This document shows positions 1 through 42,897 of a DNA stretch of 42,897 nucleotides, piece after piece. The notes beneath the pieces are model-generated. The model saw nothing but the letters and a program-made list of their open reading frames with translations. It searched no databases and was not told the DNA's origin. The stretch is from NCBI GenBank assembly GCA_029955215.1, contig GCA_029955215.1_4351.1. One strand, written 5' to 3'. This stretch comes from a phage. Numbering within the stretch: the stretch's first letter is position 1; every line of letters begins with the position of its first letter. A program made the position numbers and the translations under genes.

Positions 1-99
1 CATATCTCTTAAGTAACTGATTTTCTTAATGTGCCGTAGATTCGCAACCGTAAAAATGTAACGATTATTGGGCAGGCTTAGGGCCTGCCCTTTAGTTAC
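1..99. repeat. Left copy of exact 99-bp direct repeat (identical to 42799-42897); terminal redundancy or circular-assembly overlap
   Basis: Bases 1-99 match 42799-42897 exactly; contains hairpin gggcaggc-ttagg-gcctgccc followed by ttt at about 72-95. Confidence 0.9.
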
Positions 100-216: not shown

Positions 217-417
217 GTGATGGTTATGTTTAAGAAGGGTCAGTTGGTGAAATGCACCAACGGTAGACACGGCATAGTTGAATTAAAATCTGATTTATTT
301 CCAGGGGAGTACATTGTGATTGTGCAAAATGTGGGAGGAGTAAACTCGGTAATACGCACGCCCGAGGAAGATTTAAAACTCATCGGCAACAATTTTAAAT
401 TCAAAGGGGCGAAGTGA
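217..417 (+). CDS. hypothetical early protein (66 aa; start may be a downstream ATG)
   Basis: ORF downstream of class I promoter; no recognisable motif. Confidence 0.45.
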   Translation: MMVMFKKGQLVKCTNGRHGIVELKSDLFPGEYIVIVQNVGGVNSVIRTPEEDLKLIGNNFKFKGAK

Positions 418-620
418 TGGAAGAATTATTTGAGGAACTGAAACACCATGAGTTCGAGGAAATATATTTTGTAGCTGAACGCTACGAGGTGCATCTGGTG
501 GACGGTATAACGGTTATTACATCTACCAGTGAGCGAATGTTAAATAGCTTACAGGCTATACGAACGGCATCGAATCATGATGCTCGCGCCGACGACTCTG
601 AGGGAGGTTGCCGTAAATGA
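414..620 (+). CDS. hypothetical early protein (68 aa)
   Basis: ORF overlapping upstream stop (ATGA coupling); acidic N-terminus. Confidence 0.45.
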   Translation: MMEELFEELKHHEFEEIYFVAERYEVHLVDGITVITSTSERMLNSLQAIRTASNHDARADDSEGGCRK

Positions 621-808
621 GAATTCGTATAACTGATGTTGATTATGTGCTGCCGCCGTCTTATGGCGACCACCCTTTGCGACACTTTGGGGTTTCGGTG
701 GGTGATGTGTTCTATGTCACCTATCGCAACGACTATGGGTATCTTGTAGAGAAGGATGGTGAAGAACTGTTTATCCGTAACATAGAGGCGGAGATTATCT
801 GTGAATAA
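617..808 (+). CDS. hypothetical early protein (63 aa)
   Basis: ORF with overlapping start/stop coupling. Confidence 0.45.
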   Translation: MRIRITDVDYVLPPSYGDHPLRHFGVSVGDVFYVTYRNDYGYLVEKDGEELFIRNIEAEIICE

Positions 809-856
809 TTACCAGTTTATTTTAATTGTCAGCGCCGTTTATGTGGTGCACGCGTT

Positions 857-1090
857 ATGGGGGTTGGTATGAGAAAACACATAATCAAGGTGGACTATCT
901 GGATGGGGTTAAATTACCGACGAATAAGATAGAAACGTGGTGCGGGGTTACCCCATCGTACGGTGAATGGCTGTTCCAGGATGCTCAACACGCCTTAATT
1001 GCTGTAGAAAACGGATTCAGGCAAGAGCCTTGCGCACAGTGTTTATCCGCTATCGTCCAGATCGCAACTCAGGCATTAAGTGAGGACTAA
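857..1090 (+). CDS. hypothetical early protein (77 aa)
   Basis: ORF in same-strand array. Confidence 0.4.
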   Translation: MGVGMRKHIIKVDYLDGVKLPTNKIETWCGVTPSYGEWLFQDAQHALIAVENGFRQEPCAQCLSAIVQIATQALSED

Positions 1091-1093
1091 GTT

Positions 1094-1237
1094 ATGAGAG
1101 AAGCATTTGAACGGTGGGCCGTAGTCGAGGGTCTGCCGGTTAACAAGGGTTCGAAGAAAGAGTACCTGAACGTTAAGACGCGTCTCGCGTGGCGGGCGTG
1201 GAAAGCTGGTGTGCGAGCGGTTATGAACCGGGGGTGA
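1094..1237 (+). CDS. hypothetical small protein (47 aa, not in ORF track)
   Basis: ATG 1094 four nt after upstream stop; translation MREAFERWAVVEGLPVNKG..., stop TGA 1235-1237. Confidence 0.35.
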   Translation: MREAFERWAVVEGLPVNKGSKKEYLNVKTRLAWRAWKAGVRAVMNRG

Positions 1238-1240
1238 GAT

Positions 1241-1453
1241 ATGGGAGAGTGGATTAAGTGTAGTGAGCGGTTGCCGGAAGATACCAAAATGTTACTGGCA
1301 TTTAGTCAAGGTGAAATCGTGGCGGCATATTGGAACTGGGTTGTAAATCCAATTGATTACAAAAAAAAATATAGGGGGTTTACGTATCTGTCCGGTAATG
1401 AACTTGGCGGAGTAACCCACTGGATGCCGTTACCAGCGCCGCCGGAAGTGTGA
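1241..1453 (+). CDS. hypothetical protein, DUF551-like (W-x-x-x-x-E-R-L-P and W-M-P-L-P motifs)
   Basis: MGEWIKCSERLPED...THWMPLPAPP resembles phage DUF551-type proteins from memory. Confidence 0.45.
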   Translation: MGEWIKCSERLPEDTKMLLAFSQGEIVAAYWNWVVNPIDYKKKYRGFTYLSGNELGGVTHWMPLPAPPEV

Positions 1454-1486
1454 TGTTCAATAGTTTGAGATTTTACTGAGTGACTT

Positions 1487-1520
1487 ACGCTGCTACACAG
1501 CAGCGTATCATTTTTCTCAT
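1487..1520 (+). terminator. rho-independent terminator
   Basis: 8-bp stem acgctgct/agcagcgt with acac loop, followed by atcatttttctcattttt. Confidence 0.6.
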
Positions 1521-1577
1521 TTTTGTTCTATTTCACGAAACGCAACAATCGAAGCGACTATTGCAGGAGATGCAACA

Positions 1578-1754
1578 ATGAAAACGTTCACAGAGAAACT
1601 TATGGAGTGCGTTGCGAAGCGAGATGCTGCAGTCCGCAGCTACCGTAAATGCGCCAACTGCGGCAGCGAGCAGGTACAGTTAATCTCGTACCTCAGCAGT
1701 GAGGTTACGCATAAGTGTAGAAAATGCCATCACGTAAATCGTAGACACCGATAA
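1578..1754 (+). CDS. small zinc-ribbon-like protein (58 aa; CxxC...CxxC)
   Basis: ATG 1578; CANCGSE ... CRKCHH cysteine pairs. Confidence 0.4.
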   Translation: MKTFTEKLMECVAKRDAAVRSYRKCANCGSEQVQLISYLSSEVTHKCRKCHHVNRRHR

Positions 1755-1761
1755 AATTTAC

Positions 1762-1790
1762 TTGCACGCTAAGATAGAATAGGCTACTAT
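1762..1790 (+). promoter_or_regulatory. sigma70-like promoter, class I (TTGCAC-N17-TACTAT)
   Basis: TTGCAC 1762-1767, TACTAT 1785-1790, same spacer family as 163-191. Confidence 0.6.
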
Positions 1791-1820
1791 TCATTTACAC
1801 GAACGAGAGGAGAGACAGAG

Positions 1821-1970
1821 ATGGTTACTTTGATGATTATGGAATTCGAAAACAGCACCGCAACTTACCGTGAGATGGCTATGGCGCAGGCGTACCACCT
1901 GGCCTCAAACGGCAACTTCTACAAGGCCCAAATCATCAATGAGTTCGGGGTAATTGACTATGAATTTTAA
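1821..1970 (+). CDS. hypothetical small protein (49 aa, not in ORF track)
   Basis: ATG 1821 preceded by gagaggagagacagag; stop TAA 1968-1970. Confidence 0.4.
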   Translation: MVTLMIMEFENSTATYREMAMAQAYHLASNGNFYKAQIINEFGVIDYEF

Positions 1971-2232
1971 CAGCTACACTGTGACCGTTGATTTTGAGGG
2001 GCTGGATTTGCCCCTCCCCAACAACTATAGGTATATAACCCGTGACCGTTTCGGTTTTATTCAGGGGTGGAGGAACAAACCAACATACACTGAGTTCGGG
2101 ATGTCAGGAGGAGAAGAGTTGCCAATCACGTTCGGACATCAGAGTAGCAACGAAGAACTTAAAACTGTGATTCGTAAGTATCGTCGCCGCGGTAACACTG
2201 GGTTTATAGCGATAACCGGCGCTCTTGAGTAA
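1960..2232 (+). CDS. hypothetical protein (about 90 aa)
   Basis: ORF track 1954-2232 begins at TTG; first ATG at 1960. Confidence 0.45.
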   Translation: MNFNSYTVTVDFEGLDLPLPNNYRYITRDRFGFIQGWRNKPTYTEFGMSGGEELPITFGHQSSNEELKTVIRKYRRRGNTGFIAITGALE

Positions 2233-2248
2233 GAGAGAGAGGCAGAAG

Positions 2249-2581
2249 ATGGGTAACAAAAACGAAGTATTCGAGTACCTGATTGACCAGCTACGGCAGC
2301 AGGTAAACAACAACCAGTGCGAAGACCTGGCGCACGAGGTGCAGTCACTTAAGAATCAGTTACGTGATGCGTCGGCGCAGATTAGGGATTTGCATGTCGC
2401 CTTGGTTAAAGCTACTGGTGATGTAGAGGCTTACAAAGTTCTACGCAAGTGCGCGAAAGTGCCCGAGCAATCCGGTTGCCGTAAGGAAGACGTGCAGGAA
2501 TGCTGCCACGACTTTGAATACATATACCCCGAAAGTGGGGCGCATCGTCATTGTATTAAATGCGGATGGACAACCGAATGA
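2249..2581 (+). CDS. hypothetical protein with coiled-coil N-terminus and Cys-rich C-terminus (110 aa)
   Basis: ATG 2249 after RBS-like gagagg; C-terminal CCHDF...HRHCIKCGW. Confidence 0.45.
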   Translation: MGNKNEVFEYLIDQLRQQVNNNQCEDLAHEVQSLKNQLRDASAQIRDLHVALVKATGDVEAYKVLRKCAKVPEQSGCRKEDVQECCHDFEYIYPESGAHRHCIKCGWTTE

Positions 2582-2781
2582 CCAGCATCTTATTTATCTG
2601 GGTATTATACGCGGGCCAGATGCAACTAGCGGCATCAGAAACGTTTTACTCGATGGAGGCGTGCCAGTCAGCGGCACGCGCCGCAGAGAACGCGCACTTC
2701 CTGTTTCAGGGAGACAAGCCCAACGATTCAGAGGTGCGCGCTATCTGCTCACCTAAGCGACTTGGTAAACAGGAGAAATAA
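2578..2781 (+). CDS. small protein with N-terminal signal-peptide-like hydrophobic segment (67 aa)
   Basis: ATG 2578 overlaps upstream stop (ATGA); MTSILFIWVLYAGQMQLAAS... Confidence 0.45.
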   Translation: MTSILFIWVLYAGQMQLAASETFYSMEACQSAARAAENAHFLFQGDKPNDSEVRAICSPKRLGKQEK

Positions 2782-2782
2782 C

Positions 2783-2965
2783 ATGGTACAGAGATATAGC
2801 TACAACCCGATGTTCGGGTTTACTCCTGATGTTGAAGGCGGGTTAGTGCTTTACGAAGATTACGTGAAACTCGAAGCCGAGTTACAGAAATACAAAGACC
2901 AGTTCCCGGATTACGTCGAGTGCGCGAACTGTGGGTCAGTTACACATGTGGAAGGGGCGGAGTGA
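2783..2965 (+). CDS. hypothetical protein (60 aa)
   Basis: ATG 2783 preceded by AGGAG 2771-2775. Confidence 0.45.
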   Translation: MVQRYSYNPMFGFTPDVEGGLVLYEDYVKLEAELQKYKDQFPDYVECANCGSVTHVEGAE

Positions 2966-3258
2966 TGTCTTTAGCAACTGACATCCTGAAACGAAGCGGC
3001 CTTGCGCCGCTGTCACCAAGAGCGAACACCAGAATATACAAGCGCCGCCGTAACGCGCTGTTCCCTGAGATTCAGGCCAGACTCAAAGCTGTCCGCGCCT
3101 GTGGATTCCAGAACGGGAAGGCCGTGAATCTCGGTGAGTTTAAAACAAAGGAACGCGCCGCAATCGCTAACCGGTTATTTAATTACTGGAAATCGATGGG
3201 GTACGATGATATTCCAACGAAACCGCAGAGACGACAATACATCTGGAGACATAAATGA
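2965..3258 (+). CDS. hypothetical basic protein (97 aa)
   Basis: ATG 2965 overlaps upstream TGA; RBS gaagggg. Confidence 0.45.
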   Translation: MSLATDILKRSGLAPLSPRANTRIYKRRRNALFPEIQARLKAVRACGFQNGKAVNLGEFKTKERAAIANRLFNYWKSMGYDDIPTKPQRRQYIWRHK

Positions 3259-3695
3259 CTACTATCGCGTTTGACGGAAAGACAATGGCCTGTGACACCC
3301 GTGCTGTTTGCGGGAGTAACTGTTACAGCACAGACACTAAGATATACGAGAATGATTTCTCCGTTATTGGGGTGGCTGGTGATGCGGGGGTCAGCACTAT
3401 GCTTATAGATTGCCCGTATATCCTCCAGGCCAGACCATATGACTTCGATTTCGAAGCCCTGGTATTCGTGAAAGACGCAGAAAAGGTGTATAAAGTAGCG
3501 TTTTATAAATCGTGGGATTGTGCCCTTAGTTCGGTTATTCCGGTTGCCGATAGCTTTTCGGCTGTGGGGTCTGGCTCCCCTTATGCTCTGGCGGCTATGT
3601 ATTTAGGTAATACGGCAACACGTGCGATTACTGTAGCCGCACAATTTGACACTAACACCGGTGGTAAGATTATTACCAAACGACTATTAGGATAA
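3255..3695 (+). CDS. HslV/proteasome-beta-like Ntn-hydrolase family protein (146 aa)
   Basis: N-terminal MTTIAFDG (Thr directly after Met) and internal AVGSGSPYALAAM align by eye with E. coli HslV MTTIVSV... / AIGSGGPYAQAA. Confidence 0.6.
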   Translation: MTTIAFDGKTMACDTRAVCGSNCYSTDTKIYENDFSVIGVAGDAGVSTMLIDCPYILQARPYDFDFEALVFVKDAEKVYKVAFYKSWDCALSSVIPVADSFSAVGSGSPYALAAMYLGNTATRAITVAAQFDTNTGGKIITKRLLG

Positions 3696-3754
3696 ATCCT
3701 AACCGTGCTATCCTCCAGTTACTGCATACTTAATACGCACCTGGAGGATTCATC

Positions 3755-4063
3755 TTGGATAAATTTACTGAAACAGTGACAGGCTGGCTTCTCGCTGCCG
3801 CACTAGCCGGAGGGGTAATCGGACTAAGGCAACATAAGTCCGCTATTTCCGGCCCTATCGACGGATTCTGCTTTATCGCAACTGGCTTCACTTGCGCTGT
3901 ATTTGGCGCACCTCTCGCGGCGCAATGGTTTGGCATTACCGGAGAACGCGAGATAGCTGGCCTGGGCTTCATTATTGCTATTCTCTGGATGCCTATCTAT
4001 TCCCGTCTCTCCGGTATCGTCGCTGGAGAATACATCGCACGTCGAGGAGGCACAGATGAATGA
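3755..4063 (+). CDS. holin-like membrane protein (TTG start, 102 aa)
   Basis: Multiple hydrophobic helices; GGAGGA RBS 3743-3748; directly upstream of endolysin. Confidence 0.55.
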   Translation: MDKFTETVTGWLLAAALAGGVIGLRQHKSAISGPIDGFCFIATGFTCAVFGAPLAAQWFGITGEREIAGLGFIIAILWMPIYSRLSGIVAGEYIARRGGTDE

Positions 4064-4328
4064 GTTATTCTGGTTCGGCGGTATGCTGGCAATTGGAGGC
4101 ACATCGCTGTTTAATGTATACCACCCCAGCGTTGACGACGGGTTATTCGGCCGGGTGCTCTATATCCTGACTGCTATTGTCTGCGCCGCTGGGTGTATCC
4201 ACCTGTTACAGGGCAGCATGTCACCTACGTTGCCGGAGACATTAATCGCATTAGTTGCGCTGCGTCAGGTTCGTCAGGCGTGGCTGTCATACGGAGGACA
4301 TAAGCGTGTCTCGAAACATTTCAGATAA
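4056..4328 (+). CDS. second small membrane protein of lysis cassette (holin/antiholin-like, 90 aa)
   Basis: ATG 4056 after GAGGAGG RBS; two predicted TM segments; ORF track start 3975 is probably too far upstream. Confidence 0.5.
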   Translation: MNELFWFGGMLAIGGTSLFNVYHPSVDDGLFGRVLYILTAIVCAAGCIHLLQGSMSPTLPETLIALVALRQVRQAWLSYGGHKRVSKHFR

Positions 4329-4794
4329 TGGGTTGCATTTTACCGCTGCGTTCGAGGGATTCCGCGGCACTGCGTATCGCGCGACACCAAACGAGAAGTA
4401 CCTGACTATTGGTTACGGAAGTTATGGCCCGCATGTTAAGGTGGGACAGACCATCACGCCTGGTCAAGGCCTCCTGTTACTGAATCGCGATATGGCTAAG
4501 GCCGTAGCTGCGGTTGACGCAGCAGCACACCATTCATTGACACAGGCTCAGTTCGACGCAGTGTGTGACTTGGTTTATAACGCAGGCGCTGGCGTGATTG
4601 CAGCTACTACAGGCACTGGTAAGGCGCTACGCTCAGGCGATATTGCGACGTTGCGGGCTAAGCTGGCACTATTCATCAACCAGAACGGCAAACCATTACT
4701 TGGCCTGCGCCGCCGTACCGCCGGTCGTCTGGCGCTGTTCGACGGTAAACCGTGGCAGGAGGCGGAGGCTATCGGGCGCGCGGTGAAAGGTTGA
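4306..4794 (+). CDS. endolysin, phage lysozyme (GH24, lambda R / P22 gp19-like)
   Basis: TIGYG..., QAQFDAVCDLVYNAG and LRRRTAGRLALF resemble the P22 gp19 / lambda R lysozyme family; GTG 4306 after GGAGGA RBS (start uncertain). Confidence 0.8.
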   Translation: MSRNISDNGLHFTAAFEGFRGTAYRATPNEKYLTIGYGSYGPHVKVGQTITPGQGLLLLNRDMAKAVAAVDAAAHHSLTQAQFDAVCDLVYNAGAGVIAATTGTGKALRSGDIATLRAKLALFINQNGKPLLGLRRRTAGRLALFDGKPWQEAEAIGRAVKG

Positions 4795-4858
4795 CACATA
4801 AGACTAATCCGACGATACTTAAATCACCTCCTGTTCCATCCCTCTGCTCTCCAGTTTT

Positions 4859-4890
4859 ATCCCGGCCCTGACCCAGCCGGGATTTTTTTA
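4859..4890 (+). terminator. rho-independent terminator
   Basis: Stem atcccggc/gccgggat followed by ttttttta. Confidence 0.7.
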
Positions 4891-4911
4891 TCTATTTTCT
4901 GTAATGACTAG

Positions 4912-4940
4912 TTGACTATTACCTACGACCCTATTATATT
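4912..4940 (+). promoter_or_regulatory. sigma70-like promoter (TTGACT-N17-TATATT)
   Basis: TTGACT 4912-4917, 17-nt spacer, TATATT 4935-4940; about 35 nt upstream of ATG 4974. Confidence 0.6.
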
Positions 4941-42798: not shown

Positions 42799-42897
42799 CA
42801 TATCTCTTAAGTAACTGATTTTCTTAATGTGCCGTAGATTCGCAACCGTAAAAATGTAACGATTATTGGGCAGGCTTAGGGCCTGCCCTTTAGTTAC
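42799..42897. repeat. Right copy of exact 99-bp direct repeat
   Basis: Identical to 1-99; the window ends exactly at the end of the repeat. Confidence 0.9.

Follow-up and report, generated by a model that had tools for sequence, protein, structure and literature searches.

The holin gene of a coliphage, a siphophage of the genus Kagunavirus (Guernseyvirinae), is preceded by an RNA hairpin that contains its ribosome-binding site. The DNA in question, referred to below as the window, is the whole of contig GCA_029955215.1_4351.1 (NCBI GenBank assembly GCA_029955215.1; 42,897 nucleotides), which is the complete phage genome of about 42.8 kb. The hairpin occupies positions 3710–3749 and the holin gene positions 3755–4063, both on the plus strand, as are the candidate promoter elements (3687–3714) and the neighbouring genes (3255–3695 and 4056–4794) described below. 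The hairpin is real, as follows from its local stability, its conservation, and its recurrence in other genera. The function tentatively proposed for it, to which somewhat less than an even chance is given, is a transcript-specific lock on holin translation of the type known from gene e of phage T4, with a host-type promoter lying within the hairpin's 5′ arm. The same proposal, at the same strength, covers the origin of the lock, which would descend from, or parallel, a junction of terminator and promoter in sister genera.

A Predicted Occlusion of the Holin Ribosome-Binding Site

The stem of the hairpin is formed by an inverted repeat of 9 base pairs (bp), with ATCCTCCAG at 3710–3718 and CTGGAGGAT at 3741–3749, which are 100% complementary and enclose a loop of 22 nucleotides (nt; 3719–3740). 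An earlier note, made from the letters of the window alone, had described this repeat, and its placement proved exact to the base. In the RNA, the 5′ arm reads AUCCUCCAG, which includes an anti-Shine-Dalgarno-like CCUCC, and the 3′ arm reads CUGGAGGAU; five of the nine pairs are G-C. The Shine-Dalgarno (SD) sequence GGAGGA (3743–3748) lies wholly within the 3′ arm and is followed by a 6-nt spacer and the TTG codon at 3755–3757, as the note had also stated. Fold prediction adds an inner helix of 3 bp within the A/U-rich loop (3723–3725 with 3737–3739) and a lower helix of 3 bp, in which GUG (3705–3707) pairs with CAU (3751–3753) across an internal loop.

The folding-energy calculation proposed in the note bears the hairpin out. 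In a context of 58 nt, the predicted energy is −16.1 kcal/mol with a z score of −3.80, and none of 200 shuffled sequences is as stable; the z score of a 104-nt context is −2.38, and the hairpin by itself reaches −14.2 kcal/mol. The stem is present in the minimum free energy and the centroid folds of every context tried. The predicted burial of the SD, which the note had also claimed, is strong and depends on the 5′ arm. RNAs that start between 3600 and 3696 and hold both arms have an SD with a probability of being unpaired of 0.000–0.006 and an opening energy of 8–11 kcal/mol. In leaders starting at 3719–3723, which lack the 5′ arm, these values change to 0.53 and 3.4 kcal/mol. The bare 9-bp inverted repeat is not beyond chance in the window, where eight perfect repeats of this kind (9 bp or more, loop of 3–30 nt) are found, against 5.0 ± 2.7 in Markov-1 random sequence. 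In a window-wide scan of the cost of opening the ribosome site, the holin gene is the ninth of 87 start sites, a rank too crude to weigh heavily, with start sites supplied by a home-made gene caller and many of the higher-ranked ones being wrong internal starts.

The identification of the gene as a holin is confirmed by its match to the PHROG family phrog_2359 (E 9e-30, residues 1–96 of the 102-amino-acid product) and by the holin annotation of its relatives. The TTG start, which is conserved, is secure because an in-frame TAA (3731–3733) ends the frame upstream of it, the alignment with the phrog_2359 profile begins at residue 1 of the TTG-started protein, and the N-terminal M-D-x is common to the holin homologues of other genera, whether started by ATG or by TTG. 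A dual start of the lambda type was considered and rejected: there is a single TTG, and the next in-frame candidate, a GTG at codon 8 (3776), has no SD and is not conserved in Dhillonvirus (MDKLNEWL...). The coupling of holin translation to an RNA-melting event, suggested in the note, is unlikely. In silico, pairing of the SD never falls below 98% between 25 and 60 °C, and its mean probability of being unpaired over that range is 0.003–0.017; an RNA thermometer was rejected on these values.

Conservation of the Hairpin and Its Recurrence in Other Genera

The conservation of the element was followed in 45 Kagunavirus-type loci from IMG/VR and GenBank and in 38 metagenome loci. The most conserved stretch of the lysis region is 3705–3794, with 97.6–99.6% identity to the window, as compared with about 80–88% for the holin coding sequence; the identity of the holin protein falls to 78% among the Kagunavirus-type relatives. 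Across 82 Kagunavirus-type sequences, the block 3685–3794 is 97–100% conserved. Its start, at about 3685, is located some 25 nt upstream of the stem, at the edge of a −35-like hexamer described below. Of the 45 loci, 31 lack the HslV-like gene found upstream in the window and still keep the block unchanged; the block therefore travels with the holin gene and not with the upstream gene. These comparisons support strong purifying selection on the hairpin element.

Changes within the hairpin are few. The 5′ arm is invariant in the 82 sequences except for A3717G, which occurs in two distinct sequences and retains a G·U pair, and in the 3′ arm T3742C produces an A·C mismatch in one metagenomic contig. 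The mismatch beside the stem (3719/3740) is closed by a single change per clade, either T3719G, giving G-C, or C3740A, giving U-A. In a clade of Salmonella phages, the stem is lengthened to 13–14 bp, the loop is reduced to about 12 nt, and five to six loop positions are changed. Apart from this, the loop of 22 nt hardly varies among the roughly 80 Kagunavirus genomes and contigs. The common polymorphisms within 3685–3749 are restricted to position 4 of the −35-like hexamer, the spacer, and the "n" of a TGn motif. A metagenome scan with GGAGGAnTCATCTTGGATA for divergent variants returned 38 further near-identical Kagunavirus copies and no compensatory double changes.

As a separate observation, GGAGGAnTCATCTTGGATA is also carried by 23 unrelated metagenomic contigs, five of which have a C-rich, anti-SD-like stretch directly upstream of GGAGGA (CCTCCCA in three, CCCCCCA or CGCCCA in the other two). 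These contigs may represent another family of SD/anti-SD leaders or chance matches in a very large database.

Members of the holin family also occur in several other phage groups, where the spacer upstream of the gene does not align with that of the window. In Dhillonvirus (15 loci), a 12-bp stem with a 6-nt loop is followed by a T6 tail (z −5.87). In KW1E_UTAR and the Klebsiella phage KLB22, the stem has 8 bp, the loop 7 nt, and the tail T7–8 (z −1.50), and in Eiauvirus the stem has 9 bp, the loop 7 nt, and the tail is TTTTCTT (z −2.74). All three lineages use an ATG start. In Scappvirus (phages Scapp and Smarc4), which shares the TTG start with the window, the stem has 6–7 bp and the loop about 19 nt, there is no U-tract (z −0.15 and −1.47), and a separate terminator is located about 75 nt upstream. 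Common to all these lineages and the window are a purine-rich SD inside the 3′ arm and a stem end 5–9 nt upstream of the start codon. The hairpins of Dhillonvirus, KW1E/KLB22, and Eiauvirus are canonical terminators abutting the holin ATG, with T-tail scores of 4.0–5.4, and the depositors of KLB22 annotated a terminator overlapping the holin ribosome-binding site. No such hairpin is found in Jilinvirus ep3 and PPpW-3, whose holin gene directly follows a "late transcriptional activator" gene, or in Erwinia RF1, whose holin gene is the first of a divergent operon. Judged from the sequences, the holin-SD hairpin recurs clearly in three genera and weakly in a fourth, Scappvirus, with complete turnover of the sequence, and this recurrence is the strongest evidence of a functional structure.

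The comparison also touches the annotation of the Edwardsiella phage eiAU-183. Its holin gene (1168–1509) has an annotated start at 1222 that seems to make it too short. The ATG at 1168 yields MDLWQK..., which fits the M-D-x N-terminus of the family, and is placed directly downstream of the terminator hairpin, as in Dhillonvirus.

A Candidate Promoter within the 5′ Arm

The 5′ arm is overlapped by a candidate extended −10 element, TGcTATCCT (3706–3714), which is composed of TG at 3706–3707, the variable position 3708, and the hexamer at 3709–3714. The element scores 7.46 and ranks 128 among 85,722 window positions with a sigma70 position weight matrix (PWM), which was home-made and applied after the motif had been noticed. 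A weak putative −35-like hexamer, TTAGGA (3687–3692; TTAAGA in many relatives), precedes it with a 16-nt spacer. Among the relatives, TG and the −10 hexamer are invariant, and position 3708 is C or G in a ratio of about 1:1. According to promoter geometry, transcription would start at A3721, the seventh nucleotide after the −10 hexamer, producing a leader of 34 nt without the 5′ arm.

Similar elements accompany the counterpart hairpins. With the same matrix, Dhillonvirus has TGaTATAGT (rank 2 of 6324 positions), KW1E/KLB22 has TTGACC-17-TACTAT (1 of 6216), Eiauvirus has TGtTACCAT (27 of 5208), and the two Scappvirus phages have TAATCT (8 of 3698 and 17 of 3602). In each lineage, a −10 of the sigma70 type adjoins or overlaps the hairpin's 5′ arm, at −36 to −46 from the holin start, and in all of them except the window it is the top promoter-like site within 100 nt of that start. 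The seventh nucleotide after the −10 is a purine in six of six loci, and its position ranges from 3 nt short of the arm's 3′ end to 3 nt inside the loop. A transcript with such a predicted start would be without the 5′ arm and thus would neither terminate nor hide the SD.

Transcription from upstream should also reach the holin gene, as predicted by a terminator scan, in which there is no terminator-like site on the plus strand between 1507 and the holin start at 3755. The last such site before the holin, at 1486–1507, consists of a perfect 9-bp hairpin (TACGCTGCT/AGCAGCGTA, loop of 4 nt) followed by TCATTTTTCT, which implies a transcription unit of about 2.2 kb reading into the lysis cassette.

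These features can be joined in a single mechanism. RNA started upstream, passing through the cluster of small genes and the HslV-like gene, would hold both arms, and the 9-bp stem (−14 kcal/mol) would bury GGAGGA, allowing little or no holin to be made from read-through RNA. Ribosomes ending at the upstream stop codon (3695) would halt short of the main stem. The host polymerase, acting at the extended −10 promoter at 3706–3714, would start RNA near A3721, inside the loop. With a 34-nt leader from which the 5′ arm is missing, this transcript would leave its strong SD open ahead of the weak TTG and would serve as the productive mRNA for holin. In the sister lineages, the hairpin would be a true terminator as well; in the window, which has no U-tract, nothing but the lock on translation would remain. 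On a broader and slightly more tentative view, the junction would be a "promoter-inside-hairpin" insulator placed before the holin in several enterobacterial siphophages, namely Kagunavirus, Dhillonvirus, the KW1E/KLB22-like phages, Eiauvirus, and possibly Scappvirus. The stem-loop would terminate and/or lock the upstream transcripts, the embedded sigma70 promoter would launch the only translatable holin message, and Kagunavirus would have lost the terminator half.

Several points weigh against the transcript-specific lock, beginning with the home-made weight matrix and its late application. The −10 hexamer TATCCT is only moderate, and about 127 sites of the window score higher. A T joined to the reverse complement of a strong SD resembles TAnnnT, and thus the likeness to a promoter is partly a by-product of the stem. 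The predicted lower helix and internal loop explain the invariance of 3705–3707 and the variability of 3708 equally well. No mapping of transcription starts for Kagunavirus or Dhillonvirus was found in the literature; the only Kagunavirus RNA-seq time course found (vB_Eco_K1B4, PMC12645636) assigns the lysozyme to a "middle" class that is broad, and its resolution does not extend to start sites. The lock gives no reason for the invariance of the 22-nt loop, which leaves room for a model of processing or factor binding. There is also no obvious timer in a sigma70 promoter, so that holin synthesis may not be delayed by the lock alone. Covariation within the genus, in an alignment of 21 distinct Kagunavirus-type sequences, is not significant against a shuffle control, a statistic made uninformative by the near invariance of the stem. 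Finally, by the z scores given above, the Scappvirus hairpin is no more stable than its shuffles.

Two other elements were examined as sources of holin transcripts or of pairing. The higher-scoring TTGACA-16-GATTAT at 3646–3673, in the 3′ end of the HslV-like gene, was rejected as a conserved holin promoter. It is missing in the relatives without that gene, and its perfect −35 is specific to the window genome, as synonymous changes break the site in Shashou and SHAK7693. A second exact copy of TATCCTCCAG, which comprises the −10-like element and the 5′ arm, is found at 3419–3428 inside the HslV-like gene. It was rejected as an alternative 5′ arm, being present only in the window and two other loci (L006 and L059), and such a limited distribution makes it probably incidental coding sequence.

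Alternative Explanations

The explanation that is closest to the earlier note is a constant throttle. Under it there would be no internal promoter, both arms would be present in all holin mRNA, and a low level of translation, and with it the time of lysis, would be fixed by the hairpin and the TTG codon; in the sister lineages, the terminator version would additionally lower transcription into the cassette. The stem, its stability, and its conservation fit this explanation equally well. Moreover, holin dose is known to set lysis time, with lambda S as a precedent (10.1101/2025.05.14.654169), the Kagunavirus −10 is, as said, of moderate strength, and the strongest promoter-like sites are located downstream of the endolysin (4791–4940), whereby the lysis genes could be the tail of an upstream operon. 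Nevertheless, the constant throttle, although the main rival of the transcript-specific lock, is considered the less likely of the two. With an SD whose probability of being unpaired is at most 0.006 and whose opening costs 8–11 kcal/mol, translation would be near off, yet the phage must lyse. The throttle also leaves unexplained why a promoter-like −10 is phased with the 5′ arm in each of the five lineages, why conservation begins 25 nt upstream of the stem, and how Dhillonvirus or KW1E would express a holin gene that directly follows a strong terminator and leaves no space for a promoter in between. Of the throttled translation suggested in the earlier note, the burial of the SD is thus retained as a prediction, and its generality is not: the occlusion is probably specific to read-through transcripts, because of the position of the terminator in the other lineages and the phasing of the −10 on the 5′ arm.

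The remaining explanations are far less probable. A weak intrinsic terminator or attenuator, limiting upstream transcription into the cassette and overlapping the SD as a side effect of compaction, would agree with the canonical terminators at the same position in three lineages, with their T-tail scores, and with the KLB22 annotation. It is nonetheless improbable for the window, where the loop of 22 nt stands against a short-loop criterion of about 3–8 nt, the tail UCAUCUUG has a T-tail score of 1.52, and the scan calls nothing at the holin hairpin. In addition, the SD in the 3′ arm has been strengthened to GGAGGA instead of staying G/C-only. An intrinsic terminator was rejected here on both counts, as the element has neither the short loop with a G+C-rich stem nor the U-tract. 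Late activation is a slightly more improbable explanation, in which an endonucleolytic cut in the A/U-rich loop, for example by RNase E, or a loop-binding phage protein or RNA would release the SD and set the lysis clock running. The loop is A/U-rich, predicted to be mostly single-stranded, and more invariant than a passive loop needs to be. Against this, the Salmonella-phage clade alters five to six loop positions and shortens the loop, the loops of the sister lineages are short and unrelated, and no Rfam family matches the hairpin element. The least probable of all is that the repeat acts at the level of DNA or is a coincidence, being an operator, a recombination linker at a module boundary, or a promoter-only arm with accidental complementarity to the SD. 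The 9-bp repeat is not rare by the count given above, and the element is located at the indel boundary of the HslV-like gene. However, neither CGTGSTATCCTCC nor CTGGAGGAT is enriched in the window as a phage-specific repeated promoter or operator motif (nine half-site matches against 6.1 expected), A3717G keeps a G·U pair that is sensible only in RNA, and hairpins occur at the same offset in unrelated spacers, with a local z score of −3.8 in the window.

Relation to Known Systems

The transcript-specific lock has its closest precedent in phage T4, where, at e, soc, 49, and I-TevI, the late promoter coincides with the DNA that specifies the 5′ strand of a helix sequestering the SD (McPheeters et al. 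1986, reviewed in PMC3014915). As with gene e, a lysis gene is placed downstream of earlier-expressed genes, and an RNA helix would bury the SD on read-through transcripts. The T4 late promoters (TATAAATA, dependent on gp55/gp33) provide a temporal switch, whereas the candidate here is a host sigma70 extended −10 with no known timer. Furthermore, the target of the control is the holin instead of the endolysin, the start site is a predicted one, and the sister lineages of the window add an intrinsic terminator to the helix.

A second precedent is the lambda S gene, in which an upstream stem-loop (nt −21 to −7) controls the access of ribosomes to the SD serving Met1 (10.1101/2025.05.14.654169). 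In both cases, a stem-loop just upstream of the holin start governs, or in the window would govern, access to the SD, and in lambda the rate of holin translation sets the lysis time (10.1101/2025.05.14.654169). The lambda stem-loop splits initiation between the antiholin S107 and the holin S105, while the window holin has no conserved dual-start motif, and its stem is longer and buries the sole SD. RNA thermometers such as ROSE and fourU likewise pair the SD in a hairpin of the 5′ leader. Their helices are imperfect and weak and melt at 37–42 °C, in contrast to the helix described here, which is perfect over 9 bp with 5 G-C pairs and stays closed to 60 °C in silico. The terminators of Dhillonvirus, KW1E/KLB22, and Eiauvirus resemble the window hairpin in position, in the SD-like purines of the 3′ arm, and in the −10 on the 5′ side. 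They differ from it in their loops of 6–7 nt and tails of T6–T8, compared with a 22-nt loop and no U-tract.

Genomic Context

The assignment of the window to Kagunavirus is based on the region 3200–4800, which is 85–88% identical to the Kagunaviruses BCH953P1, phiEc3, 590B, and others, with 131 matching GenBank records. The first 99 nt of the window (1–99) are repeated exactly at 42799–42897, which makes the window a complete genome, closed into a circle, whose ends share either an assembly overlap or a terminal repeat. A strong terminator-like hairpin, GGGCAGGC-TTA-GGGCCTGCCC followed by TTTAGTTAC, is contained within this repeat, at 70–90 and 42868–42888. Two GenBank entries apparently carry a wrong taxonomy: vB_EcoM_SHAK7693 (L059; OR594180.1), listed under Autographiviridae/Kayfunavirus, and vB_SalS_TU03 (L058; MZ560703.1), listed under Jerseyvirus. 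Both have a Kagunavirus-type lysis region, with 88–91% identity over the holin leader.

The small genes at 217–3695 are all on the plus strand and are followed by the lysis cassette and then by the terminase and structural genes. The last gene before the cassette encodes the HslV-family peptidase-like protein (3255–3695; phrog_1040), and its stop codon is located 14 nt upstream of the 5′ arm. This gene is accessory, as it is present in 14 of the 45 related Kagunavirus loci, with 64–89% amino acid identity, and missing from the others; the boundary of the indel, at about 3685, falls immediately upstream of the conserved holin leader. Within the cassette, the holin gene is followed by a second holin-like gene (4056–4328; phrog_2508), whose ATG overlaps the end of the first, and by an endolysin gene with a GTG start (4306–4794; Pfam PF00959 and PHROG endolysin families). 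Two strong sigma70-like promoters directly follow the endolysin stop, TTGACA-17-GATACT at 4791–4819 and TTGACT-17-TATATT at 4912–4940; no other site in the window scores higher with the PWM than the second. It is probable that the packaging and structural genes form an operon with promoters of its own, which does not begin with the lysis cassette.

Implications

Holin dose sets the time of phage lysis, and through it fitness and burst size. Collections of phages for Escherichia coli phage therapy commonly include Kagunaviruses and Dhillonviruses, and to our knowledge nothing is known of the control of the lysis genes of these phages. If only the constant throttle holds, the element would be one further structured holin ribosome site, mainly of annotation value. 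If the transcript-specific lock is true, a module of about 70 nt would let a phage with no polymerase or sigma factor of its own stop early read-through from making holin, and lysis time would be tunable by point mutations in the stem or the −10. The type of control is already known, and the part worth experiment is the multi-genus architecture of a promoter within a hairpin. Should the insulator reading hold across these genera, the origin of the transcript would set the timing of lysis in therapy-relevant phages, and the logic of T4 gene e would have been reinvented with an unmodified host polymerase.

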